In this document: positions 18,909 through 63,675 of the stretch, in pieces
How the letters are laid out: every line of letters begins with the position of its first letter
Numbering within the stretch: position 1 is the first letter of the stretch
Assembly (NCBI GenBank): GCA_963816185.1
Contig: CAWFJJ010000006.1
Location: 1,326 to 65,325 of the forward strand
Direction: 5' to 3'
Length of the DNA stretch: 64,000 nt
DNA from: Thermoanaerobaculia bacterium
GTDB lineage: Bacteria > Acidobacteriota > Thermoanaerobaculia > UBA5066
Notes under the pieces: model-generated
The model's input: the letters and a program-made list of their open reading frames with translations, nothing else
What the model was told of the DNA's origin: nothing
The model's database searches: none
Program-made: the position numbers and the translations under genes

Positions 18909-18944
18909 CGAGAGCCGCTTCCTGCAAGGACCGCCCGATCCTCG

Positions 18945-37728: not shown

Positions 37729-40425
37729 TCACGGCTTCGCCGCGAGCCGCGCGTCCAGGTTCTCGAGCCAGTGGAACGTGGCGATCACGGTGCGGGTCGG
37801 GGCCGTCCCGTCCTGCGAGCTGGTCGGCTCGAGGAAGACGAAGGAGCCGTCCGGAAAAACGTCGTAGGTGGTATGCGCGGCACCCTGCGGCCGCGCGAAG
37901 CGGTCCTTGAAAACGGTGACCGGCGGCTGGAAGGCGGGCGCCGGAGCCGTGCCGAGGCGCGCCACCATCAGATCGGCGTCGGAGCGGAAGTAGAGTGACC
38001 GGCCGTCGCGCGCCCAGACGGGCTGGATACCCCCGTCGGTCGAGATCGGTACTTTGCCGCCACCGTTCGGCAAGGGCTGCAGATAGACCTCGTCCCGCCC
38101 GGACTCGTTCGACCGGTACGCGAGCCACCGGCCGTCGGGGGAGACCCGGCCCGAGGACTCGTCGAACGGCGTTTCGAGGAAAGGCCGCGGCATCGGCTTC
38201 TCTTCCAGGTCCAGGCGCACGATGTCGGTGCGCGATTTCGTTCGATACACGTCCACCAACAGGAACCGGCCGTCGGGGGACCAGTCGGTCACGTGGGCGT
38301 GGTCGGAAAGAGTCCAGAGCACCTCCTCGGCGCCGCTGCCGTCGGCGGGCCTCCGGATCACGCGCCGCTTCTCCCCCCGCGTTGCGCTGAACGCGATCCA
38401 CCGGCCGTCGGGGGACCAGACCGGCGTCTCGTCCTCCCCCGGCTCGAACGTCAGCCGCGTCAGCGAGTCGCGCACGAGGTCGAGCGTCCAGACGTCGTCT
38501 CCCTCTTCCTGCACGTGGAGCGCGAGGCGGCGTCCGTCGGGCGAAACGCGCGAGTCCGAGTACTCGTGGACCGTCTTCGACAGGGGCGTGGCGAGACCGG
38601 TCGCCTTCACGCGCCGCAGGAGACAGGGCGACTCGTTGAGGACGCTCCCCGGCAGGTGGACCAGAGTACCCGTCTCCGAGACGTCGTATTGCGCGGCGCT
38701 GCCCACCAGCGCGACTCCCGGGACCACGAGGACGGGCTCCTTCGTGAGCCGTCGCTCGCGGAGCGACAGGGGCGCCGCGAATAGGCCTTCGGCGCGGGCC
38801 ACGAGCAGCATCCCGGTGGCGAGCCAGGTCGGGCTGGTTCCCGTCGTGAGCGTGGTCTCCTTCCCGTCCTCGAGCGACCGCAGGACGACCTGGCCGTCGG
38901 GCGCGAACGAGATCGCCGCCTGGCGAGCGTAGAGAAGCCAGCGGGAGCCCGGGAGCATCTGCGGGTGTGCGAGGCTCGAGCCGGCGACGACCAGCTGCGA
39001 CGTGCCTCCGGTCGCCGGGACGACGCGGATACCGTCGAGCGCGCCGAAGTAGATGAGGCCGTTGTCTCCCCATGCGATGCCGCTCGGACCGGACGAGAGG
39101 TTCGTCCCGATCTCCGCCACGAGCACGACCTCGCTCGACCCGACCGCGACCTTCTTGATGGCGGTGTCGGTGGTGAAGCCGATGAAGCGGCTGTCGGGCG
39201 AGAAGAAGACGCTCTGGATCCCGTCCGATCCCGGGACCCGCGACGACCCCAGCTCGTCGAGGTGCCGGACCTCGAGGTACGAGCCCGTTCCGACCGACCC
39301 AACGACCGAGGCGAGGGTGCGGCCGTCGGGCGCGATCGCGAGAAGGCGCCGCTGGATCGTGAGGCCGAGTCGGGGTCCCATCGGGTAGCTCGTCCGGATG
39401 AGCGGGTGCCGGCGGACCGCCGGCGCGGGCTTCAGCATCCACGCCGCGGCGGCCGCGAGGGCGGCCGCACCGAGCACGGCGATTGCGAGGGGGAGAGAAG
39501 GGCTCCGGCGGGTCGCGGCGGGGGCTTCGGCGAGCCGGTCGGTGCCGGCGACGTCGAGCTCGAGGCGCGCGTCGCCGATGTCGCGGAGCCGCAGTTTCGG
39601 TTCGCGCACGAGGCAGCGGATCAGGAGGCGGCGAACGTGGTCGGGAGTCTCCGCCGGGAGCGCGGCAAGGTCCAGGTCCTGCCTCAGGACCGCAGCCAGC
39701 GTGTCGCTGACCGTCTCGCCACCGAAGAGGCGCTTGCCCGCGAGCATCTCGTGGAGGACGACGCCGAAGGACCAGATGTCGGTCCTCTTGTCGACCGGTT
39801 TGCCGCGCGCCTGCTCGGGGCTCATGTAAGCCGCGGTGCCGAGGATCATTCCCGCCTCGGTCAAATGTCGAGACATCGTCGGCGACTGCGTGAGGGACGC
39901 TACACTCGAGGCCGCGGCGTCGTCTCCCCCGAACGCCTTCGCGAGCCCGAAGTCGAGGATCTTCACGACCCCGTCGCGCGTGAGTTTCACGTTCGCGGGC
40001 TTCAGGTCGCGGTGGACGATCCCCTTCTCGTGCGCCGCCTCGAGCCCCTCGGCGATCTGCTTCGCGATCGCGATTGCCTCGTCCACCGGGATCGCGCCGC
40101 GCGCGAGGCGCCGCGCGAGGTCCTCGCCGTCGACGAGCTCCATGACGAGGATGTGGCGCGTCGAAGAGGAAGAGGAAGAGGGGATTTCTTCGAAGGAATA
40201 GATGGCGGCGATCCCGGGATGGTTCAGGCTAGCCAGCGTGCGGGCTTCCCTTTCGAAGCGCGCTCTTCTTTCTTCACCTTCAAAGAATTTTTCCGGCAGC
40301 ACCTTGATCGCAACGTCTCTCGCGAGCCGAGGGTCCCGGGCGCGGTAGACCTCGCCCATCCCGCCCGCGCCGAGAGGCGAGGACACCTCGTAGGGACCGA
40401 GCCTAGTACCGGGCTCGAGAGCCAT
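37729..40425 (-). CDS. Ser/Thr protein kinase fused to TolB-like beta-propeller
   Basis: 898-aa ORF. Motifs GAGGMGEVYRA, VAIKVL, HRDLKPANV, DFGLAKA. One TM helix. Many SPDGR-type propeller repeats. Confidence 0.9.
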   Translation of the reverse strand: MALEPGTRLGPYEVSSPLGAGGMGEVYRARDPRLARDVAIKVLPEKFFEGEERRARFEREARTLASLNHPGIAAIYSFEEIPSSSSSSTRHILVMELVDGEDLARRLARGAIPVDEAIAIAKQIAEGLEAAHEKGIVHRDLKPANVKLTRDGVVKILDFGLAKAFGGDDAAASSVASLTQSPTMSRHLTEAGMILGTAAYMSPEQARGKPVDKRTDIWSFGVVLHEMLAGKRLFGGETVSDTLAAVLRQDLDLAALPAETPDHVRRLLIRCLVREPKLRLRDIGDARLELDVAGTDRLAEAPAATRRSPSLPLAIAVLGAAALAAAAAWMLKPAPAVRRHPLIRTSYPMGPRLGLTIQRRLLAIAPDGRTLASVVGSVGTGSYLEVRHLDELGSSRVPGSDGIQSVFFSPDSRFIGFTTDTAIKKVAVGSSEVVLVAEIGTNLSSGPSGIAWGDNGLIYFGALDGIRVVPATGGTSQLVVAGSSLAHPQMLPGSRWLLYARQAAISFAPDGQVVLRSLEDGKETTLTTGTSPTWLATGMLLVARAEGLFAAPLSLRERRLTKEPVLVVPGVALVGSAAQYDVSETGTLVHLPGSVLNESPCLLRRVKATGLATPLSKTVHEYSDSRVSPDGRRLALHVQEEGDDVWTLDLVRDSLTRLTFEPGEDETPVWSPDGRWIAFSATRGEKRRVIRRPADGSGAEEVLWTLSDHAHVTDWSPDGRFLLVDVYRTKSRTDIVRLDLEEKPMPRPFLETPFDESSGRVSPDGRWLAYRSNESGRDEVYLQPLPNGGGKVPISTDGGIQPVWARDGRSLYFRSDADLMVARLGTAPAPAFQPPVTVFKDRFARPQGAAHTTYDVFPDGSFVFLEPTSSQDGTAPTRTVIATFHWLENLDARLAAKP

Positions 40426-41210: not shown

Positions 41211-41392
41211 TCCTCCCACGGGCCCCGCGCTTGCGCGTTGAATTCCCGATTCCGCTTGTCGAGGTCGTCGAGCTGTTCTTGGAGCGTGGCCGCTTGCTCC
41301 GCGAGCTGAACAGAGCACGCTTTACCCCAAGGCGGCACGGGAGGGCCTCGATCCACTGGTGGCGCGCCCCGCGTGCGCGCCGATGATCGAGA

Positions 41393-41977
41393 TCACTGAA
41401 GCGCGCCGGCAAAGCCCGCGCTCCCGGATCCCCGGGTCCTTCCCACCCTCGCCTCACTGACGACCGCAACAGCGACCGGATCCCGATTGGGAATCCCGCG
41501 GTCGAGGGCCTTCTCAACCTTGGTGGCGACCTCGCTCTCCGGCAGTCCGTTGATCTGCGCGATCTCGGAGACGATGAGATACCGGGCGTGCTCGTACATC
41601 TTCTTCTCTTGAGAGGAGAGCGCCTTCTGCGTCTGGGCACACGCCAGGTTCCTGAGGACGTCGGCGATATCCGTGAGGTGGCCCGAGCGCATTCTGTCTA
41701 GGTTCTGCTTGTACCGGCCTTTCCAGTCGGCGCTCGGCGGGAGCGTCGCGTTCTCGAGGACGCGGAACACCGACCCCACATCCGTGCGCCGTGTGAGCAG
41801 GCGCAGCCCAATGCGGTCGGAGTTTCCCACCGGCACCATCACGCGCGAATTGTTTCCGAAAAGGCGAAGGTGGTACCAGGGGACGGGCGAGCCTCCGAGG
41901 AGGGAGTCCTGAATCGTTTCGACGACCCCGACACCGTAGTTCGGGTAAACAAGCCTATCGCCGATCTTGAAGGACAC
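41393..41977 (-). CDS. carD: CarD/CdnL family RNA-polymerase-binding regulator with ~30-residue C-terminal extension
   Basis: 194-aa ORF. FKIGDRLVYPNYGVGVVETI is the Tudor-like N-terminus of the family. The tail ..RTRGSGSAGFAGALQ is encoded by a 64-nt sequence repeated at 46172. Confidence 0.85.
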   Translation of the reverse strand: MSFKIGDRLVYPNYGVGVVETIQDSLLGGSPVPWYHLRLFGNNSRVMVPVGNSDRIGLRLLTRRTDVGSVFRVLENATLPPSADWKGRYKQNLDRMRSGHLTDIADVLRNLACAQTQKALSSQEKKMYEHARYLIVSEIAQINGLPESEVATKVEKALDRGIPNRDPVAVAVVSEARVGRTRGSGSAGFAGALQ

Positions 41978-45989: not shown

Positions 45990-46262
45990 GTGAAGGTCAA
46001 CGTATCGAGGTTCAACGCGTCCATTTTCGAGCTCGTCTACCCGGACAAGAAGGAGCGCGCCTTCCTGCGCCGCGTGGACCCGGAGTTCCTCGAAGCCCTG
46101 CAAGCCGAGGCCGCGTACGAGAGCAAGCTCAAGAAATTGCCGTTCGGCCTGGGGAAGAAACTGCTCTCCCCGCCGACGATCGAGATCACTGAAGCGCGCT
46201 GGCAAAGTCTGCGCGCCCGGATCTCCGGCTCCTTCCCGGCCGTGAAGATCGGTGGATCATGA
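45990..46262 (+). CDS. hypothetical protein (lower-GC patch)
   Basis: 90-aa ORF, GTG start. Normal amino-acid composition, unlike the overlapping reverse ORFs. The C-terminal part is encoded by the 64-nt repeat shared with the carD 3' end. Confidence 0.4.
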   Translation: MKVNVSRFNASIFELVYPDKKERAFLRRVDPEFLEALQAEAAYESKLKKLPFGLGKKLLSPPTIEITEARWQSLRARISGSFPAVKIGGS

Positions 46263-47990: not shown

Positions 47991-49001
47991 ATGGACAATT
48001 CACGGACGTACCGCGCCGTGATGCTCACGAGGAAAGGCGGCCCGGAGGCGCTAGAGGTGGTGGAGCTGCCTGTCCGCGAGCCGGCCCCAGACGAGCTGCG
48101 TGTGCGCGTACGCGCAGCGGGCGTCGGCTCCACCGACGTCGTCATGCTCAGCGGTTCGTACCCGTACGCGCCGAAGATCCCCTTCGTGCCGGGCTACGAG
48201 GTGGCCGGCGTCGTCGACGCGGTCGGGTCGGGCGTGACGGGCTTCGCGCCCGGACAGCGCGTCGCCGCGCTCACGGTTCACGGCGGCTTCGGCGAGCTCC
48301 TCTATCGCGAGGCGGAGCATTTCCTGCCGATACCCGACGGGGTGTCCGATGTCGAAGCAGCTGCGGTCATCCTCAACTACGTGACCGCCTGGCAGGCGAT
48401 CCACCGCAAGGCCAAGGTCCGCGAAGGAAGGACCGCGCTCGTCACGGCGGCGGCCGGCGGCGTTGGCACGGCGGTACTGCAGCTCTTGCGGCTCGCCGGA
48501 CTGAGGACCTACGGCGCGGCGTCGGCCGGCAAGCACGGCACCGTGCGCGCGCTCGGCGCCACGCCGATCGACTACCGCGCCGGGCGCCTCGACCGCCTCG
48601 TTCGCGCATTCGAGCCACAGGGCGTCGACTACGTCTTCGACGGCGTGGGCGGAAGCGGCCTAAGCGCGTGCATCGGCGCGCTCCGCCGCGACGGCACGCT
48701 GGTCGGCTATGGTTTCATGGCAACCCGAGGACCGGTCGAAACCGTAGCAATGTTCGCGCGGATCTTCGTCGGCGCGCGCCTTCGTGGGCGGCGCGGAGCC
48801 TTCTACGGCATCACCATGCTCTACCGCAAAGACCCGCAGCCTCTGCGCGAGGACCTGCCCAAGATCTTCACGCTTCTCACCGAGAAGAAGATCGACCCGC
48901 TGGTGACGCGCCGCTTCCCGCTGCTCGGAGCGCGCCAGGCGATCGAGCTGCTGGCCGCCGGCAGCGTAGAGGGCAAGATCGTGCTCGAGAACCCGGGATG
49001 A
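47991..49001 (+). CDS. zinc-type alcohol dehydrogenase/quinone oxidoreductase (MDR superfamily)
   Basis: 336-aa ORF. PGYEVAGVV substrate-domain motif and AAAGGVGTAVLQL NAD(P)-binding motif. Confidence 0.85.
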   Translation: MDNSRTYRAVMLTRKGGPEALEVVELPVREPAPDELRVRVRAAGVGSTDVVMLSGSYPYAPKIPFVPGYEVAGVVDAVGSGVTGFAPGQRVAALTVHGGFGELLYREAEHFLPIPDGVSDVEAAAVILNYVTAWQAIHRKAKVREGRTALVTAAAGGVGTAVLQLLRLAGLRTYGAASAGKHGTVRALGATPIDYRAGRLDRLVRAFEPQGVDYVFDGVGGSGLSACIGALRRDGTLVGYGFMATRGPVETVAMFARIFVGARLRGRRGAFYGITMLYRKDPQPLREDLPKIFTLLTEKKIDPLVTRRFPLLGARQAIELLAAGSVEGKIVLENPG

Positions 49002-49184
49002 GCGCCGGTGAGCCCGCTCAATAGGCGGTACGGCCAAGCCTCTCGTTGTCGCGTCAGTCGTGCTTGCTGCCGAGCTCTGCGAACCGGAATCTCTGATGAG
49101 ACATTCAGCTTCAACCCGCTCTCAACGGATAACCGAAGGCAGCTCTGTGTCTTACAGATCGTCGACCGATAGGACCGAACACTG

Positions 49185-49349
49185 CCCCGGGGATTGACTT
49201 TTGCCGCGCCCAGCACCACGTTGAGACGAAGACGATGTTGAGGCGTTGACCTGCCGGGCCCTTCGTGGCCACCCATGCCCGTCAGCGAGCCACTAGTGAA
49301 ACCGGCAACGTCTCGTTGCCGGTTCTTGCTTTCTCCGACGGTTTGAGGG
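49185..49349 (+). other. conserved non-coding element, copy 1 (candidate sRNA or 5' leader with terminator-like hairpin)
   Basis: ~165 nt, almost identical to 63427..63593. Contains TTGACT/TTGAGA/TTGAGG/TTGACC boxes, the stem CTGCCGGGC/GCCCGTCAG with a variable loop, and the hairpin ACCGGCAAC-gtctc-GTTGCCGGT (49301-49323) followed by TCTTGCTTTCT. Lies ~100 nt upstream of the S8 peptidase start. Confidence 0.5.
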
Positions 49350-49447
49350 GGCCCTCGTATCTCTCAACCCTCTCAAACTCCTGGCCACACAGCTTCTCGC
49401 CCTTCTCCATCTTCTGCTCGTGGGATTTCCCCCAAGGAGGTTTCTCG

Positions 49448-51634
49448 ATGAGTATAGGAATACTTCGATCCACCTTTCTGCTCGGTGTCGCGGCTCTGTT
49501 GACCGCGGCCGAGCTCGCAGCGGACCAGGCGGTCATCGTGCGGACGATGAAACCGTACGGCGCGGTCAAGCAGAAGATTGCCGCCCTCGGCGGGACCGTG
49601 ACATACGAGTTCAAGAATGCGAACGGTCTGGCGGTGAGCATTCCCGACAACAAGCTCGACGCGTTGAACCTGACCGACGGAGTCCTTTACACCGTGCGCG
49701 ATGAAACCGTGCCTGCCCCGAAGCCCAAGCTGATCGTCGACGTCACAGGCGACGTTCAGTCGGACCTGGGCTCGGATGCGGCACCGGCGAACTACTACCC
49801 CTACAACAGCGATCTGACCGATGCGCTGCCGCTGCAGACGGCGGGAATTCTCGGGCAGGGGGTCGTGGTCGGAGTCATCGACACGGGCACCTCTCGCTCG
49901 GCGACGGCTCTCTGCACGGGCGCCTGCGCGACGGGGACACGCGTCCTCGGCGGCGAGAGCTTCGTCCCGGGCGAGCCGGACGCCACGGCCCCCACAAACG
50001 GCGCTCACGGAACCTGGGTCGCCTGCATGATCGGCGCGAATCGCACGTTCGGGTTCGCCAGCACCAGCGCGCTCGCGATCGCTGTCCGCACGTACTGCAC
50101 ACCGGCGGCTTCCTCCCCCTGCTCGTTCACGGCGGCTCCGGGTGTCGATGGGATCCCGATGGTCGGCCAGGCTCCCGCAGTGCAATTCTTTGCCCTGAAG
50201 GTCTTCCCGGCGTCGGGAGCCGGAGCGCCGACCAGCCGCATCATGGCGGCCATGGATCGCGCGATCGATCTGAAGAACTCCACCCAGCCGAATATGAAGG
50301 TCGTCAACATGAGCCTGGGCGGGCCGACGCTTCTTGCGGGCGGAGACATCGAAGATGAGCTCGCGACTTCCATGGCCAACTCAGGCATCACCCTCGCCGT
50401 CTCGGCAGGCAACGCGGGGCCGAGCGGCATGACGGTCGGAAGCCCCGGTACGGCGCACGGCATCCTGACGGTGGGCGCGGCCTCGAGCCCCGTCCATGAG
50501 CGCATCCTGCGAGACCTACAGTACGGGGCCGGCGTCGGGCCGCTCTATCGCCCGGACAACAACCAGCAGATGGCCTACTTCAGCTCGCGCGGCCCCGACG
50601 CGGATGGCCGCATCGATCCGGAGGTCGTCGCCAACGGCTTCGCCTCCTACGCCCAGGGCGCCGACGGCTCGATCTCCCTGGTCTCCGGAACTTCCTTCTC
50701 CGCGCCGACCATCTCCGGCGTCGCGGCCCTCCTCTACAGCGCGAAGCCGTCGGCGACGCCGGCGCAAATCCGCTCCGCGATCGTCGGCTCGGCGCGTTCG
50801 ACAGTCATTCCGACCGCGACCGCTGTCGATCAGGGCCACGGCTACGTCGACGCGGCTGCTGCGGAGACGCTTCTGAATACGAATCCCGGCCCGATCGCCG
50901 ACACCGGTCCCGCAAAGAAGAAGGTGACGCAGAATGTCCAGGAGGGCGCCGGCATTCAGCCGATCAACAGCTCCTCGTTCACCACGCACGTTGCCGATCT
51001 GCGGCCCGCGGAGCGCCGCGAGTACTACTACGTCGTCAGCAAGAACACGGCCCAAGTCCGCGTTACCCTCTCCAACGTGACGCCGGCGCTCCCGGCCTCA
51101 CAGCAGAACGCGTTGTTCGGCGACGACCTCCTCTTTGCCGTCCACTCCGCCAAGACCTCGGCGATCGGCGAAGGGGACTACCTCGCCTTCGATTTCGTCA
51201 ACGGCGCGAGATCCTTCGTTTTCGACCGGCCGGAAAACGGCGTCATGCGCGTCACCGTCAACGGAGACTGGACCAACGCCGGGAAGATCGCGACCGACCT
51301 CGCGATCGAGGAAGTCACGGCGCCCCGCTCCAAGAAAGACTTCAAGGGGAAGATCTCGCAGGGCGAGCTCGTCACGCAGACAGTCGACATCCCGGCGGGA
51401 ACCGCGTCCGTCACGTTCAGCCTCTCCTGGGACAACGACTGGAGCAGCTACCCAACCAACGATCTCGATCTGTACCTCGTGTCTCCCGGCGGCGTCCTGA
51501 ACACCAGCGGTGCGACGTTGAACAGCCCGGAAGTCGTCACGATCACGAACCCGCTGCCGGGCACCTGGACGATCTTCGCCGACGGGTTCACGATCTTCGG
51601 CAAGGATGACAAGTACGAAATCCGGATCGACTAA
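49448..51634 (+). CDS. secreted subtilisin-like (S8) serine peptidase with C-terminal beta-sandwich domain
   Basis: ATG 49448 after AAGGAGG, inside ORF 49265..51634. Signal peptide. Catalytic triad motifs VGVIDTGTS, HGTWVACM, SGTSFSAPTISG. Confidence 0.9.
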   Translation: MSIGILRSTFLLGVAALLTAAELAADQAVIVRTMKPYGAVKQKIAALGGTVTYEFKNANGLAVSIPDNKLDALNLTDGVLYTVRDETVPAPKPKLIVDVTGDVQSDLGSDAAPANYYPYNSDLTDALPLQTAGILGQGVVVGVIDTGTSRSATALCTGACATGTRVLGGESFVPGEPDATAPTNGAHGTWVACMIGANRTFGFASTSALAIAVRTYCTPAASSPCSFTAAPGVDGIPMVGQAPAVQFFALKVFPASGAGAPTSRIMAAMDRAIDLKNSTQPNMKVVNMSLGGPTLLAGGDIEDELATSMANSGITLAVSAGNAGPSGMTVGSPGTAHGILTVGAASSPVHERILRDLQYGAGVGPLYRPDNNQQMAYFSSRGPDADGRIDPEVVANGFASYAQGADGSISLVSGTSFSAPTISGVAALLYSAKPSATPAQIRSAIVGSARSTVIPTATAVDQGHGYVDAAAAETLLNTNPGPIADTGPAKKKVTQNVQEGAGIQPINSSSFTTHVADLRPAERREYYYVVSKNTAQVRVTLSNVTPALPASQQNALFGDDLLFAVHSAKTSAIGEGDYLAFDFVNGARSFVFDRPENGVMRVTVNGDWTNAGKIATDLAIEEVTAPRSKKDFKGKISQGELVTQTVDIPAGTASVTFSLSWDNDWSSYPTNDLDLYLVSPGGVLNTSGATLNSPEVVTITNPLPGTWTIFADGFTIFGKDDKYEIRID

Positions 51635-51948: not shown

Positions 51949-53004
51949 ATGAGAACACCGGCGTCCGTACGTTTCGTCACACCCCTCGCTTTGACCCTCG
52001 CGTTTGCCGCCGCCGCGGCGAGGGCCGACGTCGTGATCCCGTCGACTGTCTACCGCCGCGGCGCCGGCGGCGCCGAGTTCCGGAGCGACGTCCGGGTCTT
52101 AAACCCGACCGCCTCGCCGATCAACTACACGCCCGTCCTCTACGACCAGGTCTCCGGCCAGACGCTCACGGCTCCCCTTCAGACGATCCCCGCACGGACA
52201 CAACAGTCCTTCGACAACATCGTCGGGACGCTCTTCGGCAAGACGCTCGTGGACGGTGCGTTCGGGCCGATCCGTTTCCAGACGTCCGGCGCCATCCTCG
52301 TCTCGTCCTCCGTCAACAACTACAACGCCTGCGGCAACGGCGCGATCTCCGGCCAGTGGCTGCCCGGACTCGACGCGACGGCCGCCGTGAAGGCCGGGAC
52401 GCTTGTTCAACTGGCCTCGAGCGTGGACCTGAACAGCGGGTACCGGACGAACGTCGTCTTCACGAATCCCGGCACGCAGCCCGCGATCGTCACGGCGAAG
52501 GTGCGGAAGGGCGACGGTTCGCAGGTCTCGAGCGCGACGCTCGACCCGCTCGGGGCGAACGGGTTCGTCCAGATCGGCAACTGGGGCTCGTTCCCGGGCG
52601 TCGCGGGCACCGCAGACACGAATCTCTGGCTCGAGTTCACGAGCGACCAGCCCGTCCTCGCCTTCGCGTCCGTCATCAACAACGCGTCCGGAGATCCGTT
52701 CGCGATTGTCATGACGGCCGAGCCGAACGTCTCGTCGCCGGCTCCCGTCGCCTCCTATACCGTCTCCGACAGCCCCACGACGGGCCAGCTGGTCACGTTC
52801 ACCGACACGTCCTCGAATTCCCCCGTGAATCGGTTCTGGGCGTTCGGCGACGGCACGGTCAGCACGACGACGACCAGCACCACGACGCATACATACTCGA
52901 CGTCAGGGACGTACCACTCGGCGTTCTTCGTCGAAAATGCGAGCGGCTCGAGCAGCGCGACCAAGGACGTCGTCGTGGTGGGCAAACCCCCGGTGGGGTA
53001 CTGA
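51949..53004 (+). CDS. secreted protein with C-terminal PKD domain
   Basis: ATG 51949 after GAGAGGAG, inside ORF 51922..53004. Signal peptide. PKD signature FTDTS...WAFGDGT...HTYSTSGTY. Confidence 0.7.
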   Translation: MRTPASVRFVTPLALTLAFAAAAARADVVIPSTVYRRGAGGAEFRSDVRVLNPTASPINYTPVLYDQVSGQTLTAPLQTIPARTQQSFDNIVGTLFGKTLVDGAFGPIRFQTSGAILVSSSVNNYNACGNGAISGQWLPGLDATAAVKAGTLVQLASSVDLNSGYRTNVVFTNPGTQPAIVTAKVRKGDGSQVSSATLDPLGANGFVQIGNWGSFPGVAGTADTNLWLEFTSDQPVLAFASVINNASGDPFAIVMTAEPNVSSPAPVASYTVSDSPTTGQLVTFTDTSSNSPVNRFWAFGDGTVSTTTTSTTTHTYSTSGTYHSAFFVENASGSSSATKDVVVVGKPPVGY

Positions 53005-53092
53005 TTCACTGGAAGAAGGTAGATCTCCGGAAAGCCGAACTCCCGCGGGAATAGAATCGCAGCCGCTCTTCGTCTCCGGAGGTTTCACGCCG

Positions 53093-55663
53093 ATGCTCGC
53101 CCCGGGGACCCGGCTGGGCCCGTACGAGATTCTCTCTCCGCTCGGGGCCGGCGGAATGGGGGAAGTCTACCGGGCAGTCGACGAGCGGCTGAAGCGCGAG
53201 GTCGCCGTGAAGGTGCTGTCGCGTTTCGGCAGCCACGACCCGGAGCGTCTGAAGCGCTTCGAGCAGGAGGCGCGCGCCGCCTCGGCGCTCTCCCACCCAA
53301 ACATCCTGACGATCTTCGATGTCGGCGAAAACGAAGGCGTCCCGTTCGTCGTGTCGGAGCTCCTCGAGGGCGAGACGCTGAGGGAGCGTCTCGCCCGGGG
53401 ACCGCTCCCGTCACGGAAGGTCGTCGAGCTCGCCCGGGAACTGGCGCGCGGCCTCGCCGCCGCGCACGAGGCCGGCATCGTGCACCGCGATCTGAAGCCG
53501 GAAAACGTCTTCCTGACAAAGGATGGGAGGCTGAAGATCCTCGACTTCGGCCTCGCGAAGATCGTCTCGGGGTCCGAGGGCCGGAAGGCCGCCCCTGAGG
53601 CGACGACGATGACGGTCCTGACGGATTCCGGCTTCGTCGTGGGGACGGCGGGTTACATGTCGCCGGAGCAGGTGCGGGGCTTGCCCGTGGATCACAGGTC
53701 GGACATCTTTTCGTTCGGCTCGATCCTCTACGAGATGCTGACGGCACGGCGTGCGTTCCAAGGCGCGTCGGCCGTCGAGACGATGAACGCCGTTCTCACG
53801 ACGGACCCGCCCGAGCTCGCGGGAATTTCGGCGGTCATGCCGCCGGGTCTCGAGAGAATCCTTCGGCACTGTCTCGAGAAGGAGCGGGACGACCGCTTCC
53901 AGTCGACGCGCGACCTCGCGTTCCACCTCGACGCGCTCTCGTCGATCTCGTCGGCTGCCCTTCCGGTTCCCGCCGTACCCGCGGTGCCGCGGCGACGGCC
54001 GCTTCTCCTCGCCGGCGCGGGCGTCCTCGCGGCAGCCGTCGTGGCGGGTGCGGTCTGGCTTCTTGCGACGCTGAATACGGTGGAGCCGGCCCGGTACCGC
54101 CAGCTCACGTTCCGACGGGGAACGATCCTGACGGCGCGCTTCGCGAAGGACGGCGAGTCGATCGTCTACGGCGCCGCCTGGGATGGCGAGCCGTTCCGCG
54201 TCTTCTCCATGCGCGCGGGGAGTCCCGAGTCGGCGGCGGTCGCGCTTCCGCCCGCCGACGTCCTCTCGATTTCGGCGTCCGAGGAGCTCGCCCTCGCGCT
54301 GAACCAGCGCTTCGCGTTCGGATGGATCACCTCCGGGACGCTCGCTCGGGTGCCGTTCGCGGGCGGGGCGCCGCGGGAGCTCCTCGAGCGCGTGCAGGAG
54401 GCTGACTGGGCGCCGGACGGGAGCCTTGCCATCGTCCGGCGGGTCGAAGGACGGACGCGGCTCGAATGTCCGCAGGGACGCGTCCTGTTCGAGACGCCGA
54501 GCTGGGTCAGCCACCCGCGCGTCTCGCCCGACGGCAGCCGGATCGCGTTCCTCGACCATCCGGTCTACGCCGACGACCACGGCGCCGTGACCGTCGTCCG
54601 CGCCGGCGAGGCGCCGCGCCGTCTGACGCTCGTCTACGCCTCTGCGCAGGGGATCTCCTGGACCCCGAACGGCCGCGAGATCTGGTTCTCGGCCTCCGAG
54701 AAGGGAGCGAATACGGCGCTCCTTGCGGTCACCCCCGCGGGCCGGGTCCGGACGGTGGTCCGGGCTCTCGGGCGTCTGCGGCTCCTCGACATCTCCCGCG
54801 CGGGGCGAGTCCTCGTCACCCGGGAAAGCTCGGTCGCCAGCGTCTTCGTCCGCGGACCCGGGGGCCGCGAGGAACGTGATCTCTCGTGGCTCGACCGCTC
54901 CACCGCCGAGGACCTTTCGGCCGACGGTACGAAGCTGCTCCTCAACGAGGAAGGGGAAGGGGCCGGCGCCTCGTCGAGCGTCTACCTCCGCGGGACCGAC
55001 GGCTCCCCGGCCGTGCGGCTCGGCGAAGGGGTCGGCACGTCGCTCTCCGCCGACGGGAAATGGGCGGTCGCCATCAACTACGGCTCACCGCCCCAGCTCT
55101 GGCTCCTTCCCACCGGACCCGGAGAGCCGAGGCTCGTTCCCCGGGGGCCGATGGAGCAATACCACTGGGCGCGCGTGCTCCCCGACGGGCGGCGCGTTTT
55201 GATCTCGGGCAATGAGAAGGGTGGAGGCGTCCGGCTCTTCGTCCAGGAGATCACCGGGGCAACCGCGCGTCCGATCACGCCGGAAGGAACCGGCTACCTC
55301 CTGCCCCCGTCGCCGGACGGCAGGTTCGTCCCGTCGGCCGATCCGGAAGGACGGGTGAATCTCTACCCGGTCGACGGCGGCGAGCCCCGGCCGCTTCCCG
55401 GCATCGCGCGCGGGGACGAGGTCCTTCTCTGGAAGGCCGACGGCCGCTCGTTGCTCGTCCGGCGTGGGCTCAGCATGCCCGTCCGCATCGACCGCGTCGA
55501 CGTCGCCACGGGCAAGGCAGAACTCTGGCGCGAGATCGCTCCGGCCGACCGGACAGGGATGACCGAGGTCCCTTCGATCCGGGTTTCGGCGGACGAAAGC
55601 ACGTTCACGTATACGGTGCATCGGCTTCTCTCCGAGCTCTACGTCGCCGACGGGTTACGCTGA
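53093..55663 (+). CDS. Ser/Thr protein kinase fused to TolB-like beta-propeller (paralogous architecture to 37729..40425)
   Basis: ATG 53093 (GGAGG upstream), inside ORF 52937..55663. Motifs GAGGMGEVYRA, VAVKVL, HRDLKPENV, DFGLAK. TM helix. SPDGS/SADGK propeller repeats. Confidence 0.9.
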   Translation: MLAPGTRLGPYEILSPLGAGGMGEVYRAVDERLKREVAVKVLSRFGSHDPERLKRFEQEARAASALSHPNILTIFDVGENEGVPFVVSELLEGETLRERLARGPLPSRKVVELARELARGLAAAHEAGIVHRDLKPENVFLTKDGRLKILDFGLAKIVSGSEGRKAAPEATTMTVLTDSGFVVGTAGYMSPEQVRGLPVDHRSDIFSFGSILYEMLTARRAFQGASAVETMNAVLTTDPPELAGISAVMPPGLERILRHCLEKERDDRFQSTRDLAFHLDALSSISSAALPVPAVPAVPRRRPLLLAGAGVLAAAVVAGAVWLLATLNTVEPARYRQLTFRRGTILTARFAKDGESIVYGAAWDGEPFRVFSMRAGSPESAAVALPPADVLSISASEELALALNQRFAFGWITSGTLARVPFAGGAPRELLERVQEADWAPDGSLAIVRRVEGRTRLECPQGRVLFETPSWVSHPRVSPDGSRIAFLDHPVYADDHGAVTVVRAGEAPRRLTLVYASAQGISWTPNGREIWFSASEKGANTALLAVTPAGRVRTVVRALGRLRLLDISRAGRVLVTRESSVASVFVRGPGGREERDLSWLDRSTAEDLSADGTKLLLNEEGEGAGASSSVYLRGTDGSPAVRLGEGVGTSLSADGKWAVAINYGSPPQLWLLPTGPGEPRLVPRGPMEQYHWARVLPDGRRVLISGNEKGGGVRLFVQEITGATARPITPEGTGYLLPPSPDGRFVPSADPEGRVNLYPVDGGEPRPLPGIARGDEVLLWKADGRSLLVRRGLSMPVRIDRVDVATGKAELWREIAPADRTGMTEVPSIRVSADESTFTYTVHRLLSELYVADGLR

Positions 55664-56605: not shown

Positions 56606-59600
56606 ATGATCAGCGGAACGCCCGCCGACGACGCCGAAACGACACTGGACACGCCGGGCCTGAAGGACGGGGCGGGTCGTCCGATCCTGCCGGCCGATCG
56701 GGCAGCCGCGGGCGAAGCGTCCGAGGCCACGGACTCGTTCATCCGGCCGGGCCTCGTCATGAACGGGCGCTACCGGGTCGACCGTCTCCTCGCGCGCGGG
56801 GGAATGGGAGGCGTCTACCGCGTCGACGATCAGCTCTTTCCGGGGCGTCCGACGGCCCTCAAGATCTTCCTTCACCCGCTCCGGAACACGGTCGAGCTGT
56901 TCCGCGCCGAGTTCAGAACCATGGCGTCGCTGCGCCACCCGAACGTCGCCCGCGTGTACGACTTCGAGCAGGTCGCGGGCCAGGACGCGTTCTTCTTCAC
57001 GATGGAGCTCCTGCCCGGCGTGCCGCTCGACCGCTTCCTGGCCGAGCCGCGCGCCGAAGCGGAGACGTCCGATGCGGGGTCTCCGCCGCCCGCCTCCACG
57101 GTCGACGCGTCGGCCGTGCGCGGCCCCTCGGCCGGGCGGATCGTGCCGTGGGGGGACGCTCTCGAGCTTCTCGTCCCCGTCATCCGCGCGCTCGCGTACC
57201 TTCACGGCCGCGGCGTCGTCCACTTCGACCTCAAGCCCGGCAACATCGTGGTCAGCTCGCGCGGCGCCCAGCGCCACGTGAAGGTCCTCGACTTCGGCCT
57301 CGCGGGCCTGCGCGGCGTCCGCGGGCTCGTGATGGGCACTCCGCATTACCTCTCGCCCGAGATCGCGAGCGCGAAGGAAGGCGACCACCGCTCCGACCTC
57401 TACAGCCTCGGCATCATGGCGTACCGCCTGCTGACGGGCGAAACGCCATTCAGCACGACGCAGGGCCTCAGCGTCCTCCTCAAGCGGAAGCTCACCGAGC
57501 CGGTGCGCTTCACGAGTGCGCACGCGGAACGCGTGCCGGACTGGCTCCGCACGATCGTCGAGCGCCTCTGCTCCGTCGATCCGGCCGGGCGACCCGCGAG
57601 CGCCGGCGACCTCCTCGACGAGATCAACCGCGCGGGCGGCCTCGCGTACGAACTCGAGACGCGCGACGCCCGCGAGAACTATCTCTTCTCGAGCGCCTTC
57701 GTCGGCCGCTCTCACGAGATGGAGGACGTGAACCGCTCGATCGACGCGGCCCTCAAGGGCGATCGGCACGCCGGCCTCTTCGTCACGGGCCGGAGCGGCA
57801 TGGGGAAGTCGCGCCTCATGCGCGAGGTGCGGCTGGCCGTCCAGCTGCGCGGCGTCCCGTTCCTCGAGGTCGACTGCTTCGAGCGCGACCTGACCGAGTC
57901 CGGGCCGATGGCGAACCTCGTCCTGCAGGCCGCCCGCCTCGCGACATCCGTGGGCGCGCAGTCGCTCCTCAATGCGCACGCGCCGGAGATGGTCAAGCTC
58001 GTTCCGTCGCTCCCGCTCGACGCGGGGGTCGCGCCGACGCCGCCGCTCCCGAACGCGGACGCCGAACGCCGGCGCGTCCTCGAGGCCATCGCCGCGTTCC
58101 TCGTCGGGCTCGGCCGCATCACGCCGTACGTCGCGTACGTGAACGACTTTCAGTGGGCGCGCGACGGCACCGTCGACGTCGCCTCGTCGCTCCTCGCGAT
58201 CCGCTCGGGCGCGGCTGTCGCGGCCACGGGCTCGAAGTTCTGCCTCCTCGGCAGCTACCGCGTCGACGACGTGACGGGCCGGCCGCTCGCGCGCCTCGTC
58301 CAGCCGGGACCCGAGCGCCCGGCGCCGCGCGTCGTCGAGCTCTCCCCGCTTCGCGACGAGGACGTCGCCGGCCTCCTCAGGTCCATGCTCGGCCTCTCCG
58401 AGCTGCCCGATTGGCTCGCCGCGCACGTCGCCGAGTCGAGCGAGGGCCTCCCGTTCTTCGTCGAGGAGATCCTGCGCGACCTCCTCGAAGAGGGCCGGCT
58501 CGGGATGGCGGACGGAAGGGGTGCAAAGCTCGCCGAGGGCCTGCGCATCGACGCGGCCGCGTCCTTCCTGAAGCGCGCGGCGCGCGTCTCGCCCGGCGAG
58601 CGGAGCCTCCTCGACATCCTCGCCGTCTCGGGGCGGCCCTTGGACACGGACGTCCTGCAGGAGGTGAGCGGCCTTCCGCGGCCGGCGGCCCGCGAGGCCC
58701 TCCAGATCCTCGGCGAGAAGCAGATGGTCGTCGCGATCCAGGGCGAGAAGGAGCGCTACAACCTCGCCCACGACCGCATGCGCGAGGCGCTCTACGTGGG
58801 CCTGCACGCGGACGCGCAGACGGCCCTCCACCTGCGCCTCGGGAGGAGCCTCGCCCGCGCGCTCGCGGCGGGCGGCCGGTGGGAGACGCTCTTCGAGGCC
58901 GTCGCCCACTTCGGCCAGGCCCTCGACCGCGACGGCCCCGGGGCGCTCGCCGACGAAGCCGAGCGCACGGGCGTCGCGCGCCTTCAGCTTCGGGCGGCCG
59001 TGGCCACGAACGCGACGGGAGCCTTCTCGACCGGCGTCTCCTACCTCGAGCGCGCGCTCTCCCTCCTCCCCGAGCGCGCGTACGAGCGTACGTACGACCT
59101 TGCCCTCGCCGTCGACCACGCGCTCGCCGCGACGCTCATCCCGCTCGGGCGCGTCGACGAGGCGCTAAGGGCCGCGGACCGCATCGTCGCGAACGCGCGC
59201 GGCGCCCTCGACGAGTCGCCCGGATGGGAGGCCCGCATTCTCGCGTACGCCGCGCTCAACGAGTATCCGAAGGCGATCGCGGCCGGCATCGAGATCTGCG
59301 GGCGGCTCGGCCTCGCGCTGCCCACGGACCCCACGCGCCTCGACATCGCCCGGATCCTCGGCCGCGTCCTCTGGAAGGTCCGCAACATGACGGACGAGAC
59401 GCTCGCCACGCTCCCAGAGGTCGAGGACCCGCGCGCCCTGCGCCTCATTCGCATCATGTCGTCGATGACGGCGTGCGCGTACGTCTCGCGGCCGTACCTG
59501 TGGCCCGTCCTCATCGGCAATTGCCTGACGCTCATGCTGCGCCACGGCCGCGGGCCCACGCACGCGCTCCTCTTCGTCTGGTTCGCGACGGCGCTCAACG

Positions 59601-60596
59601 CCGTGGGCCTCTACGGCGCGTCGGTGCGCTTCTCGCGCCTCGGCACGCGCCTCATGGGCGCGCCCGACGGCGCCGCGTTCCTCCCGAAGCTGCACCACGC
59701 GATGGGGCAGTTCGTGTCGCACTGGAGGGAGCCGATCGCCCGCTCGGCCGAGTGGTGCCGCGAGGGCTACGCGCTCGGCCGGCGCGTGGAGGACGCGGAG
59801 TTCGCGGGCTACTGCCACATGGGCTGGGCGAAGGCGCGGCTCGAGATGGGCGAGCCGCTCTCCGAGGTGCGGACGACGGCGCTCGACGCCCTCGAGACGA
59901 TCCGGGCTTCGGGACAGATCGGCACCGAGGTCATGCACCGGACGACGATCGAAGTCGTCGACGCCCTCATGGGCCTCGCCCCCGTGCCGGCCGCCGGCGC
60001 CGGCGACGCCGCGCGCTCCGCCGAGCTCAGCAACACGCAGAACGCTTTCCGCCTCCTCGACCGCGCGCGCCTCCTCTGCTTCTTCCGGAGGAGCGGCGGC
60101 TCCGCGCTGGGACGCGAGCTCCTGAAGGTGAGCGAGATCGGCCTGCCGGCGACGTTCTTCCTCTCCATCGCGCACTACGTCGCGTGCCTGGGCTGGATGC
60201 TCGAGGCGCGCCGCGGCGGCGCCTTCACGCGGCTCGCAGTGCCTCGTTCGCGTGCGCCTTGCGCGCGGCCGGATTCGCAAATGGGCGCGCCTCTGCCCCC
60301 ACAATTTCGAGCACCGCGCGCTCCTCGTGGACGCCGAGTGGCTGCGCACGACGGGACGCCCCGGGCGCTCGCTTCGCAGATACGAAGAGGCGATCGCGGC
60401 GGCGTACGACCACGGGTTCGTCCAGGACGCGGGGCTCGCGCACGAACTCGCGGCCGAGATGCTGGTCGACCGCGGGGACGAGCGCGCGGCGCGGACGCAC
60501 GTCCTCGCGGCGCTGGAGAGATACCGCGCGTGGGGCGCCGACGCGAAGGTCCTGGACCTGCAGACGCGTTACGCCCGATTCCTCGCCGCCGCCTGA
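56606..60596 (+). CDS. Ser/Thr kinase - AAA(STAND) ATPase - TPR multidomain protein, frame interrupted near the 3' end
   Basis: ORF 56606..60664 carries the kinase (RGGMGGVYRV, HFDLKPGNIV, DFGLAG) and P-loop (VTGRSGMGKSRLM), then turns into Arg/Pro-rich sequence after ~60240. The family-typical C-terminus (NFEHRALLVDAEWLR...ALERYRAWGADAKV) is ORF 60252..60596 in another frame. A single-nt shift lies between ~60236 and 60252. Confidence 0.8.
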
Positions 60597-60615
60597 CGCG
60601 TGACCGCCCGGCCGG

Positions 60616-62791
60616 TCAGATCGAGATGCTGTTCGGAATCATCGAGGGCAGCTGGTTCTCGTAAGGCAGCGGGCGCGTCCGGTTGCGCTTGCGGATCTCG
60701 GCCTCGATGGCGGCGAGCGCCATCCTGAAGTCGACGTTGACGGCCTCGGCCCGCGCGTCGGCGAAGTAGGGCCGGCGGGGATTGTCGGAGTACGTGCCGA
60801 ACGTGTCGTACTGCACGCTGCTCAGGAGGTACCCGAACGCCACCTGGTAGAGCGCGACGTCGACGGGCGGCAGCAAGCCGAGCAGGGGGTCGGGAGAACC
60901 GGCGGCCCTCGAGCCCGAGGGCGGCGGCGCGTACGCCGTGCCCGAGACGCTCGGCAGGTACGACATCAGGGGGTACTGCGCGTAGTTCACGTTCGCGTGC
61001 TGCGGTCCGGCCGTGTAGACGATGAGCGACACCATGTCGACGAGGTAGTCGAAGCTGTCGAGCTGCGCCGTGCCCTGTCCCTCGGCGCCGCCTGTCGAAC
61101 GTCAGGCCGCCGAGCCCGCGGAACGCCGCGCCGGCCGGGCTCGTGATCTCCTCGACCCACGCCTGCACTTCCTTGTCCGCGCGCACGTCGTCGTTGCCCG
61201 CCGTAGTAGCACGCGAGATACGCGCGCACGTACTCGCGGATCGCGTCCCAGAGGAGGAGGGTGTCGTCGCGGAACGGGAACTCGGGCAGCCGCTCGCGGT
61301 CGACTCCCCGGAGCGCGAACAGGCGGTGCGGCAGGTTCTGGTCGAAGCGCCACGCGAGCCGCGCGTCCCGCACCATCCCGAGGCTTCCGGCGATGCTCGG
61401 CGACAGCACCGACGCCACGACGCCGTGCGGAATGATGAGGCTGTGCTTGGCGCCCTCGTTGATGTCGAGCGTGAACCGGAAGTGCGGCGCCAGGAGCGCG
61501 AGGATCGGATGCTCGACCGAGAGCTGGCGGTTCGTGGCGACGACGAGCGTCTCGACGGTGAGATGGCAGGCGCCGAGGTGCGCGACCGTCTCGTGCTGCA
61601 CGGCGACGGCGTTCAGCACCCAGAACTTCGCGACCTTCCACGCCGTGGCGTCGCCGCCGGGAAGGAAGATCGGACAGGTCACGGGGTCGTGCTTCTGGCC
61701 GACCTGGATCGCGACCGGCTGCAGGCTGCCGCGCCCCTCCGGGAAACCCGGCCCCGGCTCGGGGTTCCAGTAGAAGAGGGCGATCGGCGCGGCGAGGTAG
61801 CGCTGGTCCCCGTGGAGCCTGCTCGCCTCTACGCCGTCGAACATCGTGAGGTCGAGCGCGTAGAGACGGCCGATCTCCGCCGCCCGCTGCAGCGTGAGGG
61901 ACGAGTCGCCGGAGGCGGCCTTCAAGCATCGCGTCGGTCACGGGCATCTTCGAAAGCAGAGCGCCGAGGTCGACCGCGAGCTCGGGTGCCATACCCCTCG
62001 GGAAGACGCCCTTGAGGTTCGAAGTGTTGAAGCCGGCGATCTGGAGCCAGCCGAAATACCAGTCGCTCTCCCACACCTCCTGGCCGGGCGCGAGGCGCAT
62101 CCACGGCTGCGGCTCGAAGTTCGATCACGGCGGGCGGTCCGGGGAAGCCCGGGTACAGCGTCTTGAACTCCGCGAGGTCCTTCGCGTGCAGGTACCCGTC
62201 GCCCGTCTGTGGCGTCCGGAGAACTTCGTAGAGCGTGTCCCTCAGGAACGACGTGATGCCGACGTCCTTCATGTCCTGGAGCGACTTCGAGACCGCCTTC
62301 TCGAGCCCCTCGACGAGCGGCGGGATCTCGGACATCTTCTTGTACGCCTCAGCGAGCTCCGGCGGGCCGCCTTCGAGCGACTCGAAGATCCTGACGATTG
62401 CAGCGAGGTCCGCGGGGACGTTCAGCGGGTTGAGACCCGAGAACTGTTTCTTCGCGGCGTCGATCGCGCTCTGCAGCGCGACCATCCACGGCATCGGCAT
62501 CGCCGGAAGGTCCGCGCGCAGCTGCGCCTCGAATCGGGCGACGAGGACGCTCTTGAGGTTCTCGGCGACCTCGAGGAGGACGGGCGCGACCTTCGCCTTG
62601 TACGCGAGCGAGAACCTCTCGGAGTCGGGCACCTGCGCCGCGAGCGGCGCGGGGTACAGGTAGCTCGTCGTGTAGTTGTATCGCGTGCGCGCGAGCGAGA
62701 GCTCGTAGCTCCGGTGATGGGCACGTTTCTCGTCGTCCTTCTGCGGGAGGGATGGAAGGGAGCCAATCACGAAGCCTCCTCGACACGTCAT
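60616..62791 (-). pseudogene. lipoxygenase gene broken by four single-nucleotide frameshifts
   Basis: Four consecutive reverse-strand pieces in different frames: (1) ..SLPQKDDEKRAHHRSYELSLARTRYNY..LYPGFPGPPAV. (2) NFEPQPWMRLAPGQEVWESDWYFGWLQIAGFN..PVTDAML. (3) KAASGDSSLTLQRAAEIGRLYALD..WKVAKFWVLNAVAVQHETVAHLGACH..LLLWDAIREYVRAYLACYYG, then NDDVRADKEVQAWVEEITSPAGAAFRGLGGLTFD. (4) GGAEGQGTAQLDSFDYLVDMVSLIVYTAGPQHANVNYAQY...IPNSISI. Shifts lie near 62120-62130, 61919-61928, 61197-61202 and 61088-61097. Metal-ligand motifs and the C-terminal Ile are retained. Confidence 0.8.
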
Positions 62792-62963
62792 CGGACGACC
62801 GGGTTACGTGCAGGCAGTATACAGACGCGTCAACCAGTCTCAACCGCAGGCGGGCTGGGCGAGGTCTACGGGGCGAATAACACGAAGATCGAACGCGGCG
62901 CTGCTACTCGTGTGTAATAGTTGACGTCTGGGGTTCAGAAGTAATTGGGCCTGAGGTGGAACG

Positions 62964-63368: not shown

Positions 63369-63426
63369 AGCCGGAGATCGGCGACGCTCGTCCGCATCTC
63401 GAGGGCTTCGCGGCGCTGGGGGCTGG

Positions 63427-63593: not shown

Positions 63594-63675
63594 TACCCGA
63601 GCCCGAAGTTGAAGCGACGTGTTTGCATGCAGGCGAGCGCAATCTTTGTAAACGTTTGTGGAAAGGAAAACCCCC

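Follow-up and report, generated by a model that had tools for sequence, protein, structure and literature searches.

Two near-identical non-coding elements in a 64-kb stretch of Thermoanaerobaculia DNA (64,000 nucleotides (nt) of contig CAWFJJ010000006.1, assembly GCA_963816185.1; hereafter the window) appear to be messenger RNA (mRNA) leaders with a riboswitch of the cyclic diguanylate II (c-di-GMP-II) fold, likely to bind c-di-GMP, to act as ON switches, and to descend from duplication of one cassette. The probability of this reading is put at roughly 80%. Both copies lie on the + strand in the 5' leader of a gene of the same orientation, and in both the expression platform overlaps the aptamer. 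A first-pass annotation, made from the letters of the sequence, had described a near-identical pair in one orientation, upstream of unrelated genes, and this is borne out: the copies are 92% identical (154 of 168 columns of a gapped alignment), their flanks are unrelated on either side, and the genes downstream begin 99 nt (S8 protease, ATG 49448) and 83 nt (CsbD, ATG 63676) past the element ends. A gap-free repeat search pairs 49184-49327 with 63426-63569 (family D8; 92% identity, 14,242 nt apart, one strand). The elements, their aptamers (scored on Rfam model RF03169 and on a covariance model, R1, built from relatives as described below) and the genes that follow them are:

49184-49349, + strand: element, copy A
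49230-49316, + strand: copy A aptamer; RF03169 49.0 bits, model positions 1-86 of 86; R1 69 bits
49448-51634, + strand: gene A, secreted subtilase with Peptidase_S8 and PPC domains and an N-terminus resembling a signal peptide; AAGGAGG 7 nt upstream of the ATG
63426-63593, + strand: element, copy B
63472-63558, + strand: copy B aptamer; RF03169 49.8 bits, model positions 1-86 of 86; R1 69.7 bits
63676-63879, + strand: gene B, CsbD-like small stress protein of 67 amino acids (PF05532, 51 bits)

The family assignment comes from an Rfam scan, which the first-pass annotation had proposed. At gathering thresholds the whole window gave exactly two matches, both to RF03169 (c-di-GMP-II-GAG), with E of about 1e-6. 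RF03169 is the best family of clan CL00127 for both copies, two lower-scoring clan matches being suppressed, and a permissive scan around copy A (49100-49460) returned nothing besides RF03169 better than E = 2.7. Acido-1 and Acido-Lenti-1, the candidates suggested earlier, resemble the element in taxonomic neighbourhood and intergenic position, but neither has a match at the gathering score in the window or at E <= 10 in 49100-49460. A known riboswitch clan gains a new member here, one that routine Rfam annotation would flag.

Within that clan its position is intermediate. The gathering score is 40 bits for RF03169 and 53.5 bits for the canonical family, RF01786; typical Actinomycetota members score 58-77 bits on RF03169, Bacillota members with 'GAA' aptamers (L024, L080) score 65-69 bits on RF01786, and among the nearest relatives L109 (56.4 bits) and L006 (54.7 bits) pass RF01786 while L102 and L104 are assigned to RF03169. 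The 14-nt junction consensus is AGUgGUG-CA-ACCGg in the canonical family (GUGCAACC) versus AgUGGCG-AG-ACCGa in the variant (GCGAGACC), and in the consensus lines the loop partner shifts from G to U alongside this change. The three-letter code of the class names would, on this comparison, denote junction positions 7-9, GCA in the canonical class and GAG and GCG in the variants. At this putative signature both copies read GAA (G49298 A49299 A49300; G63540 A63541 A63542) and not the GAG of RF03169. The third letter is A, as in the canonical class, against G in the GAG consensus; the middle letter is A, against a canonical C, and stands opposite C in copy A and A in copy B with no pairing partner. 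The canonical AA bulge is present in both copies (49300-49301 in copy A, in the canonical register). Since they combine a GAA triplet and an AA bulge with an RF01786 score under the cut-off, the copies are filed as c-di-GMP-II clan members between the two curated families rather than as strict members of the GAG variant.

Both copies can form all the helices of the c-di-GMP-II fold: P1 (seven pairs in copy A, eight in copy B), P2 (three pairs), P3 (nine pairs, one of them a C.U mismatch) and a pseudoknot (3+3 pairs). The conserved junctions are also present in both, namely the A between P1 and P2, the GGC-3-nt bulge-GA, the GA-GCC and the A.U..G..ACCG. The helices are located as follows:

49234-49240 with 49306-49312, + strand: copy A P1, GAUGUUG / CAACGUC, 7 pairs, one of them G.U; paired at 99% in the subfamily alignment A6
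49242-49249 with 49287-49291, + strand: copy A P2, GGC, 3-nt bulge GUU and GA opposite GA-GCC, 3 pairs; k-turn-like (C stem, bulge, tandem G.A)
49251-49285, + strand: copy A P3 hairpin, CUGCCGGGC / GCCCGUCAG, 17-nt loop
49266-49272, + strand: copy A pseudoknot loop strand, UGGCCAC; C49269 (A in copy B) faces A49299, a mismatch
49296-49304, + strand: copy A 3' pseudoknot strand, GUGAAACCG, containing the GAA triplet
63476-63482 with 63548-63554, + strand: copy B P1
63484-63486 with 63531-63533, + strand: copy B P2
63493-63501 with 63519-63527, + strand: copy B P3
63508-63514 with 63538-63546, + strand: copy B pseudoknot (all copy B helices from RF03169 and a fold with P1 forced)

The k-turn-like arrangement of P2 is a prediction that combines the sequence with the c-di-GMP-II consensus given in PMC12564702. 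The stem that the first-pass annotation had drawn as CTGCCGGGC/GCCCGTCAG, with differences in its loop, is real: it is P3, and three of the changes between the copies fall in its loop.

Relatives were collected with a degenerate pattern built from the conserved junctions, applied to one genome per species; pairing of P1, of P3 and of the pseudoknot loop strand was not required. The pattern found 86 loci, mostly in Acidimicrobiia, other Actinomycetota, Thermoleophilia, Chloroflexota and Bacillota, with few in Acidobacteriota. Fifty-two short-form members made up alignment A2, from which R1 was built. On the same loci R1 gave 97 matches, nine of which the pattern had missed; these were as a rule additional (second or third) copies at 1-3 kb from the first, so several copies per genome in front of different genes are normal for this family. 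A same-strand open reading frame (ORF) starts within about 350 nt of the aptamer in 94 of the 97, in most of these within about 100 nt, and in many relatives the platform is one that sequesters the Shine-Dalgarno (SD) sequence instead of a terminator. When metagenomes were scanned with the subfamily signature, 31 contigs were returned; 22 of these have model matches, and they fall into two groups. Group 1 (L098, L102, L109) has the aptamer and a 45-nt 5' segment with TTGACT in common with the window copies, shares about 110 nt further upstream with copy A only (49075-49183), and precedes a gene for a GYD-domain protein. Group 2 (L006, from a Thermoanaerobaculaceae metagenome-assembled genome (MAG), with L104, L099, L089, L090, L115, L108, L107, L110, L092 and L095) has a different 5' region. 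After the aptamer, both groups carry the same hairpin as copy A, with AACCGGCAAC as the 5' arm, GUUGCCGGUU as the 3' arm and a U/C-rich tail. Contig L118 is identical to the window; exact matches to proteins were confined to metagenome contigs (ENA ERZ25039489, Logan ERR11594405), and the GTDB species representatives do not include this genome.

The covariation check that had been called for was made with the relatives' alignments and their own covariance model, and paired changes are present. In A2, 82-83% of the cells of the proposed structure are paired, compared with 29-46% when partners are slid by 1-3 columns, and 20-21 pairs have changed on both sides; the close subfamily reaches 91.5% paired cells, with both-side changes at eight pairs. 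P2 is invariant in 52 of 52 sequences of A2, and the inner P1 pairs covary in that alignment. P3 has both-side changes in eight of its nine pairs across the family, with 92% of cells paired, and in seven of nine within the subfamily. The pseudoknot is 93-96% paired in the family, and at one pair (columns 48-76) an A-U pair is replaced by G-C six times. A first pseudoknot register (U46-A80, C47-G79) was rejected in favour of the canonical one (46-78, 47-77), the paired fraction being 93.0% versus 95.9% and the canonical register fitting the GAA members as well; in it, two bulged nt (canonical class AA, GAG variant GA) separate the pseudoknot segments. As a separate observation, A2 columns 46 and 72 (window positions 49269/49295 and 63511/63537) show non-Watson-Crick co-variation, U46 occurring with G or A72 and most C46 with C72; the window copies have C/C (copy A) and A/C (copy B) there, and the two columns may form a tertiary contact.

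The expression platform is clearest in copy A, where a predicted intrinsic terminator follows the aptamer:

49300-49336, + strand: copy A predicted intrinsic terminator; stem AACCGGCAAC(G) / (C)GUUGCCGGUU, 11 pairs, 3-nt loop, U/C-rich tail CUUGCUUUCUCC

A terminator scan calls this hairpin at 49300-49324, and its folding energy is -19.5 kcal/mol (z = -4.1). Across 15 subfamily members the stem is 96% paired; it is kept in 13 of the 15, with one compensatory change, in L107. In its 5' arm the pseudoknot's 3' strand (AACCGG) is joined to the first four nt of the 3' strand of P1 (CAAC). As can be read directly from the sequence, this sharing makes aptamer and terminator mutually exclusive, and a ligand-dependent ON switch is therefore predicted. 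For copy A, a state in which P1 and P2 are forced lies 13.8 kcal/mol above the terminator state, the energy of pseudoknot and ligand not being counted, and the default is therefore expected to be OFF. The earlier suggestion of a riboswitch- or attenuator-type leader thus has the backing of the RF03169 match, of covariation in about 100 relatives, and of the terminator arm that overlaps the 3' part of the aptamer. In the proposed mechanism, each copy would be the 5' leader of an mRNA with a c-di-GMP-II-fold riboswitch. Without ligand, AACCGGCAAC would pair with the downstream GUUGCCGGUU to form the terminator, and transcription would end some 110 nt short of the start codon. Ligand binding would keep AACCGGCAAC in the aptamer, no terminator would form, and transcription would run on into the gene for the S8 protease in copy A or for CsbD in copy B. 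This putative ON logic would agree with the ON behaviour of the class, which has been reported for c-di-GMP-II riboswitches (PMC7583470).

The genes that follow the aptamers are informative about the ligand. Among 92 usable downstream ORFs of the family are nine for BldD-like regulators, six and five for SpaA and SdrD_B adhesin folds, and four for Peptidase_S8 (including that of copy A); other products are type IV pilins, LPXTG proteins and proteins with malectin domains. In the closest relatives the downstream genes encode a GYD protein, a PA14 adhesin, an Ig-like surface protein, a papain-type protease, an M29 peptidase and a secreted beta-helix protein. BldD is a c-di-GMP-binding developmental regulator of actinomycetes. 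Within the window, 32479-35214 codes for a PAS-GAF-PAS-GGDEF-EAL protein. Canonical c-di-GMP-II riboswitches most often control surface-anchor proteins (PMC9481103). Judging from the surface, adhesion and secreted products downstream, the GGDEF-EAL gene, and the relatives that score as canonical, the ligand is probably c-di-GMP.

Three side observations concern these genes and relatives. An RF03169-type aptamer precedes bldD in Mycobacteriales, Frankiales and related Actinomycetota MAGs (L048, L050, L054, L057, L067, L075, L077, L082, L085), and these bldD-leader aptamers have an extra hairpin inserted in the P3 loop. One Bacillota locus (L080) carries a canonical c-di-GMP-II aptamer, a c-di-GMP-I-GGC aptamer and a c-di-GMP-I aptamer within 2.7 kb (1964-2050, 4379-4463 and 4571-4658, respectively). 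Just upstream of the GGDEF-EAL gene of the window, at 32223-32369, is a 21-nt tandem repeat of seven units (found as six overlapping 42-nt copies, family D7), which probably encodes a heptad peptide repeat. Competing coding assignments at the elements were rejected: the ORF 49265-51634, which runs through copy A, is a mere extension of the protease frame, whose true start is ATG 49448 with its SD sequence and signal peptide, and the antisense ORFs 48821-49276 and 62904-63758 are not conserved.

Several results weigh against reading the two elements as c-di-GMP-dependent ON switches. Their scores exceed the RF03169 gathering score by only 9-10 bits, and their RF01786 scores, masked by clan competition, are necessarily below 49.0 and 49.8 bits and under the cut-off of 53.5. 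The GAA triplet fits neither named class, and beside the bulge copy A has C.A, and copy B A.A, in place of a pair. The copy A terminator has an interrupted U tract (UUCUUGCUUUCU). The copy B hairpin (-9.3 kcal/mol, z of about 0) does not stand out from shuffled sequence, and copy B may therefore fail to switch altogether. No promoter is found at either copy by a sigma-70 scan, and CsbD follows such an aptamer only in the window (one of the 92 downstream genes). Binding, termination and transcription start are each predicted from the sequence. RF03169 was reportedly introduced by Weinberg et al. (2017, PNAS 114:E2077) as a variant class with possibly altered ligand specificity. The general aim of the variant-finding pipeline is described in PMC5473149.

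Some of these results would suit the same fold and switch with another ligand, such as 3'3'-cyclic GMP-AMP (3'3'-cGAMP), cyclic di-AMP (c-di-AMP) or a related nucleotide, either for the GAA/C.A subfamily or for the whole GAG-like branch. The top-scoring Rfam model describes a variant class set apart by altered nucleotides at the binding site, the triplet is GAA instead of the canonical GCA, the C.A mismatch beside the bulge recurs in the subfamily, and the subfamily has C at position 72, which is G in most members. Such a change of ligand is nevertheless unlikely: the third letter, which separates GAG from the canonical class, is A here and canonical-like; the Bacillota 'GAA' aptamers and the nearest relatives pass the canonical model; the gene associations, BldD included, are typical of c-di-GMP control; and a GGDEF-EAL gene is present in the window. 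It is also improbable, though conceivable, that the Acidobacteriota-like subfamily constitutes a distinct specificity or tuning class, with another ligand or with c-di-GMP bound at very different affinity, whose promoter-aptamer-terminator cassette is portable and has been placed before unrelated genes (S8 protease, CsbD, GYD). The subfamily does have a signature of its own (GGCCAC loop, CCACU, GAA triplet, and C.A mismatch beside the AA bulge), which straddles RF01786 and RF03169.

The window copies resemble the canonical class (RF01786) in the architecture of P1, k-turn-type P2, P3 and pseudoknot, in the junctions GA..GGC, UGA, GAGCC and ACCG, and in the AA bulge between the pseudoknot segments (consensus GUG-C-AA-CCG). 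They differ from it in scoring below 49 bits against a gathering score of 53.5, in having C.A (copy A) or A.A (copy B) where it has a G-C pair beside the bulge (columns 46-78), in their GC-rich helices, in coming from an Acidobacteriota-like metagenome genome rather than from Clostridia, and in a platform that is a predicted intrinsic terminator with its 5' arm shared with pseudoknot and P1. The canonical class is said to have been described by Lee et al. (2010, Science), and its structure (3Q3Z) by Smith et al. (2011, PNAS). c-di-GMP-II-GAG (RF03169) is the only family above threshold and shares with the copies the fold, the GC-rich helices and the A at the middle position, as well as an overlapping range of phyla (Actinomycetota, Chloroflexota, Acidobacteriota); unlike its typical members, which score 58-77 bits, the window copies score 49-50 bits, have the triplet GAA, and lack the U-A pair at columns 46-78. 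The c-di-GMP-I riboswitches (GEMM-I, RF01051) have the same presumed ligand, a regulon of surface, motility and secreted functions, and several copies per genome, but their fold is unrelated and the RF01051 model does not match the window.

The two copies differ at 14 places, which are grouped by segment below. Only three lie within the core (49234-49312), all of them in the P3 loop, and the other 11 are outside it. The one at 49269 is in the pseudoknot loop strand, at a column already mismatched in copy A.

49207, 49209, 49212 and 49228, + strand: four differences in the 5' segment
49269 C/A, 49274 C/T and 49276 T/C (copy A/copy B), + strand: three differences in the P3 loop
49313, 49316, 49318, one extra T, and 49325, + strand: five differences in the terminal hairpin
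End of the element, + strand: two differences at the 3' edge

The first-pass annotation had placed the differences in two sites, the loop and the terminal hairpin; both sites stand, but four more differences are in the 5' segment and two at the 3' end. It was likewise right that the terminal hairpin differs; rather than as rebuilt, that of copy B is better seen as the stem of copy A, taken as ancestral, with two substitutions in the 3' arm (GTTGCCGG to GATACCGG) and one extra T. The resulting structure is:

63542-63577, + strand: copy B terminator-like hairpin; AACCGG, 13-nt loop, CCGGUU, then UUUUGCUUUCU; 6-8 pairs, U6

The 3' arm thus reads GAUACCGG in copy B versus GUUGCCGG in copy A, with two mismatches relative to the arm conserved in 13 of 15 relatives, and the extra U completes the U6 run. 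A change from U to G at 63555 adds the pair C63475-G63555, which brings P1 to eight pairs in the fold with P1 forced. The terminator state of copy B is only 4.5 kcal/mol below the aptamer state, versus 13.8 in copy A, and the terminator scan does not call the copy B hairpin. The aptamer has no substitution in the P1, P2 or P3 pairs or in the conserved junctions, and its sole change in a pseudoknot strand, at 63511, is at the column already mismatched. The weaker stem, the longer P1 and the longer U run all read as pushing toward read-through, and copy B would accordingly be leakier or more sensitive than copy A, showing more basal expression or responding to less ligand.

The same observations could mean that copy B is decaying, with an intact aptamer, a platform that no longer terminates, and constitutive read-through into a CsbD gene not truly under ligand control. 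Besides the weak, uncalled hairpin and the two mismatches in a conserved arm, the loss of the whole arm in the relative L098 and the unique association with CsbD speak for decay. This is a possibility of some weight, yet it is judged doubtful: the helices and junctions are unsubstituted and the 63511 change falls on an existing mismatch, the changes are coherent and not random (an extra P1 pair, a weaker stem, U6), a stem of 6-8 pairs followed by U6 can still terminate, and the terminator state remains the more stable one by 4.5 kcal/mol.

The candidate promoter region lies in the 5' segment that both copies share, and copy A has a further conserved block upstream:

49184-49229, + strand: copy A 5' shared segment, candidate promoter region; TTGACT at 49194-49199 and, 21 nt later, TTGAGA at 49221-49226
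63426-63471, + strand: copy B 5' shared segment; TTGACT at 63436-63441
49075-49183, + strand: conserved non-coding block of about 110 nt, copy A only; about 80% identical to L098, L102 and L109 at the same position

The first-pass annotation had counted four TTGA boxes and proposed that the element has a promoter of its own. Two of the boxes, TTGAGG at 49238 and TTGACC at 49246, are conserved nucleotides of the aptamer core and not boxes. No such promoter could be confirmed: TTGACT makes a good -35, yet no -10 lies at a sigma-70 spacing from it. The 21-nt spacing of TTGACT...TT(G/A)AGA is kept in L098, L102 and L109, and with TT(G/A)AGA as a -10-like element transcription would start just before P1, but a 21-nt spacer is too long for sigma-70. 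Three other candidates, judged by eye, were rejected: TTGACT with CACGTT at 17 nt, since CACGTT does not qualify as a -10; GGCAC-N4-TTGA in copy B, sigma-54-like but with the wrong spacing, no GC at -12 and no equivalent in copy A; and ..GAC-N20-CGTT, resembling an extracytoplasmic function (ECF) promoter, with too long a spacing and a CGTT not conserved in L109 or L098. The block at 49075-49183 occurs neither at copy B nor in the rest of the window or the other loci; it has no Rfam match, and its predicted structure is weak and non-covarying (four sequences). A 33-codon ORF inside it is not conserved. The block may be a promoter or regulatory region, or a 5' leader. It is proposed that both copies arose by duplication of a whole cassette, consisting of the 5' promoter-like segment, the aptamer and the terminator.

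A cassette that includes both a -35-like TTGACT and a terminator could instead be a stand-alone small RNA (sRNA) gene, whose transcript, some 105-140 nt long, would act in trans, the downstream genes being incidental. In other bacteria terminated riboswitch transcripts can act in trans, SreA and SreB of Listeria being examples. This explanation is very improbable here: the sequence matches a cis-regulatory aptamer family, a same-strand ORF follows within about 350 nt in all but three of the 97 relatives, the SD-sequestering platforms of many relatives fit control in cis only, and no target complementarity is known. A trans-acting sRNA, though conceivable, is not needed to account for the elements.

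Least probable of all is that the pair is a dispersed repeat or a miniature mobile element without any regulatory function, which a near-identical pair 14 kb apart with unrelated flanks might suggest. Just two copies are present in 64 kb: with R1, run with filters off, no further copy was found in the window, the next best match scoring 12 bits. Terminal inverted repeats and target duplications were not seen in the copy reads and alignments, although no inverted-repeat search was run. The substitutions avoid the aptamer core, and orthologous elements of other phyla lie in 5' leaders and show structural covariation.

If the elements are c-di-GMP-II-fold leaders as proposed, two unrecognised regulatory leaders can be annotated, and a secreted subtilase and a CsbD protein of an uncultured, probably acidobacterial organism would be tied to second-messenger control. 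Natural 'GAA' intermediates bridge the split that Rfam makes between the canonical and GAG classes, which matters for the prediction of ligand specificity from family labels. The pair formed by a strong terminator and a weakened terminator with a longer P1 would be a natural example of a riboswitch cassette retuned after duplication. Knowledge of the riboswitch class itself is unchanged; the residual interest lies in the intermediate signature, the duplicated cassette with its apparently retuned terminator, and the CsbD association.

Several other features of the window were noted. The region 12600-20900, together with 7082-10264, is dense in direct repeats, with 16 copies of a 70-nt unit as well as units of 143-300 nt. 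The 70-nt unit appears to encode a conserved K-rich stretch of the '...KKAVKDLDVKPAKG' type with which many small paralogous ORFs start, and these ORFs adjoin a gene for a protein with two cyclic nucleotide monophosphate (cNMP)-binding domains, a C39 peptidase domain and an ATP-binding cassette (ABC) exporter. The whole looks like a bacteriocin cluster, or one for ribosomally synthesized and post-translationally modified peptides (RiPPs), with many precursors. A lipoxygenase gene on the - strand is split over three overlapping frames (60616-61035, 60987-61925 and 61922-62791) and is either a pseudogene or the result of assembly frameshifts. Immediately upstream of copy B, an apparently isolated gene at 62964-63368 encodes a T4 gp19-like tail-tube protein (PF06841). 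A second two-copy repeat (family D9) of 67 nt, 90% identical, is found at 41378-41444 and 46171-46237, 4.8 kb apart. Three large Ser/Thr protein kinase genes are present (37729-40425, 52937-55663 and 56606-60664), two of them with PD40/beta-propeller repeats and one with an AAA_16 domain.

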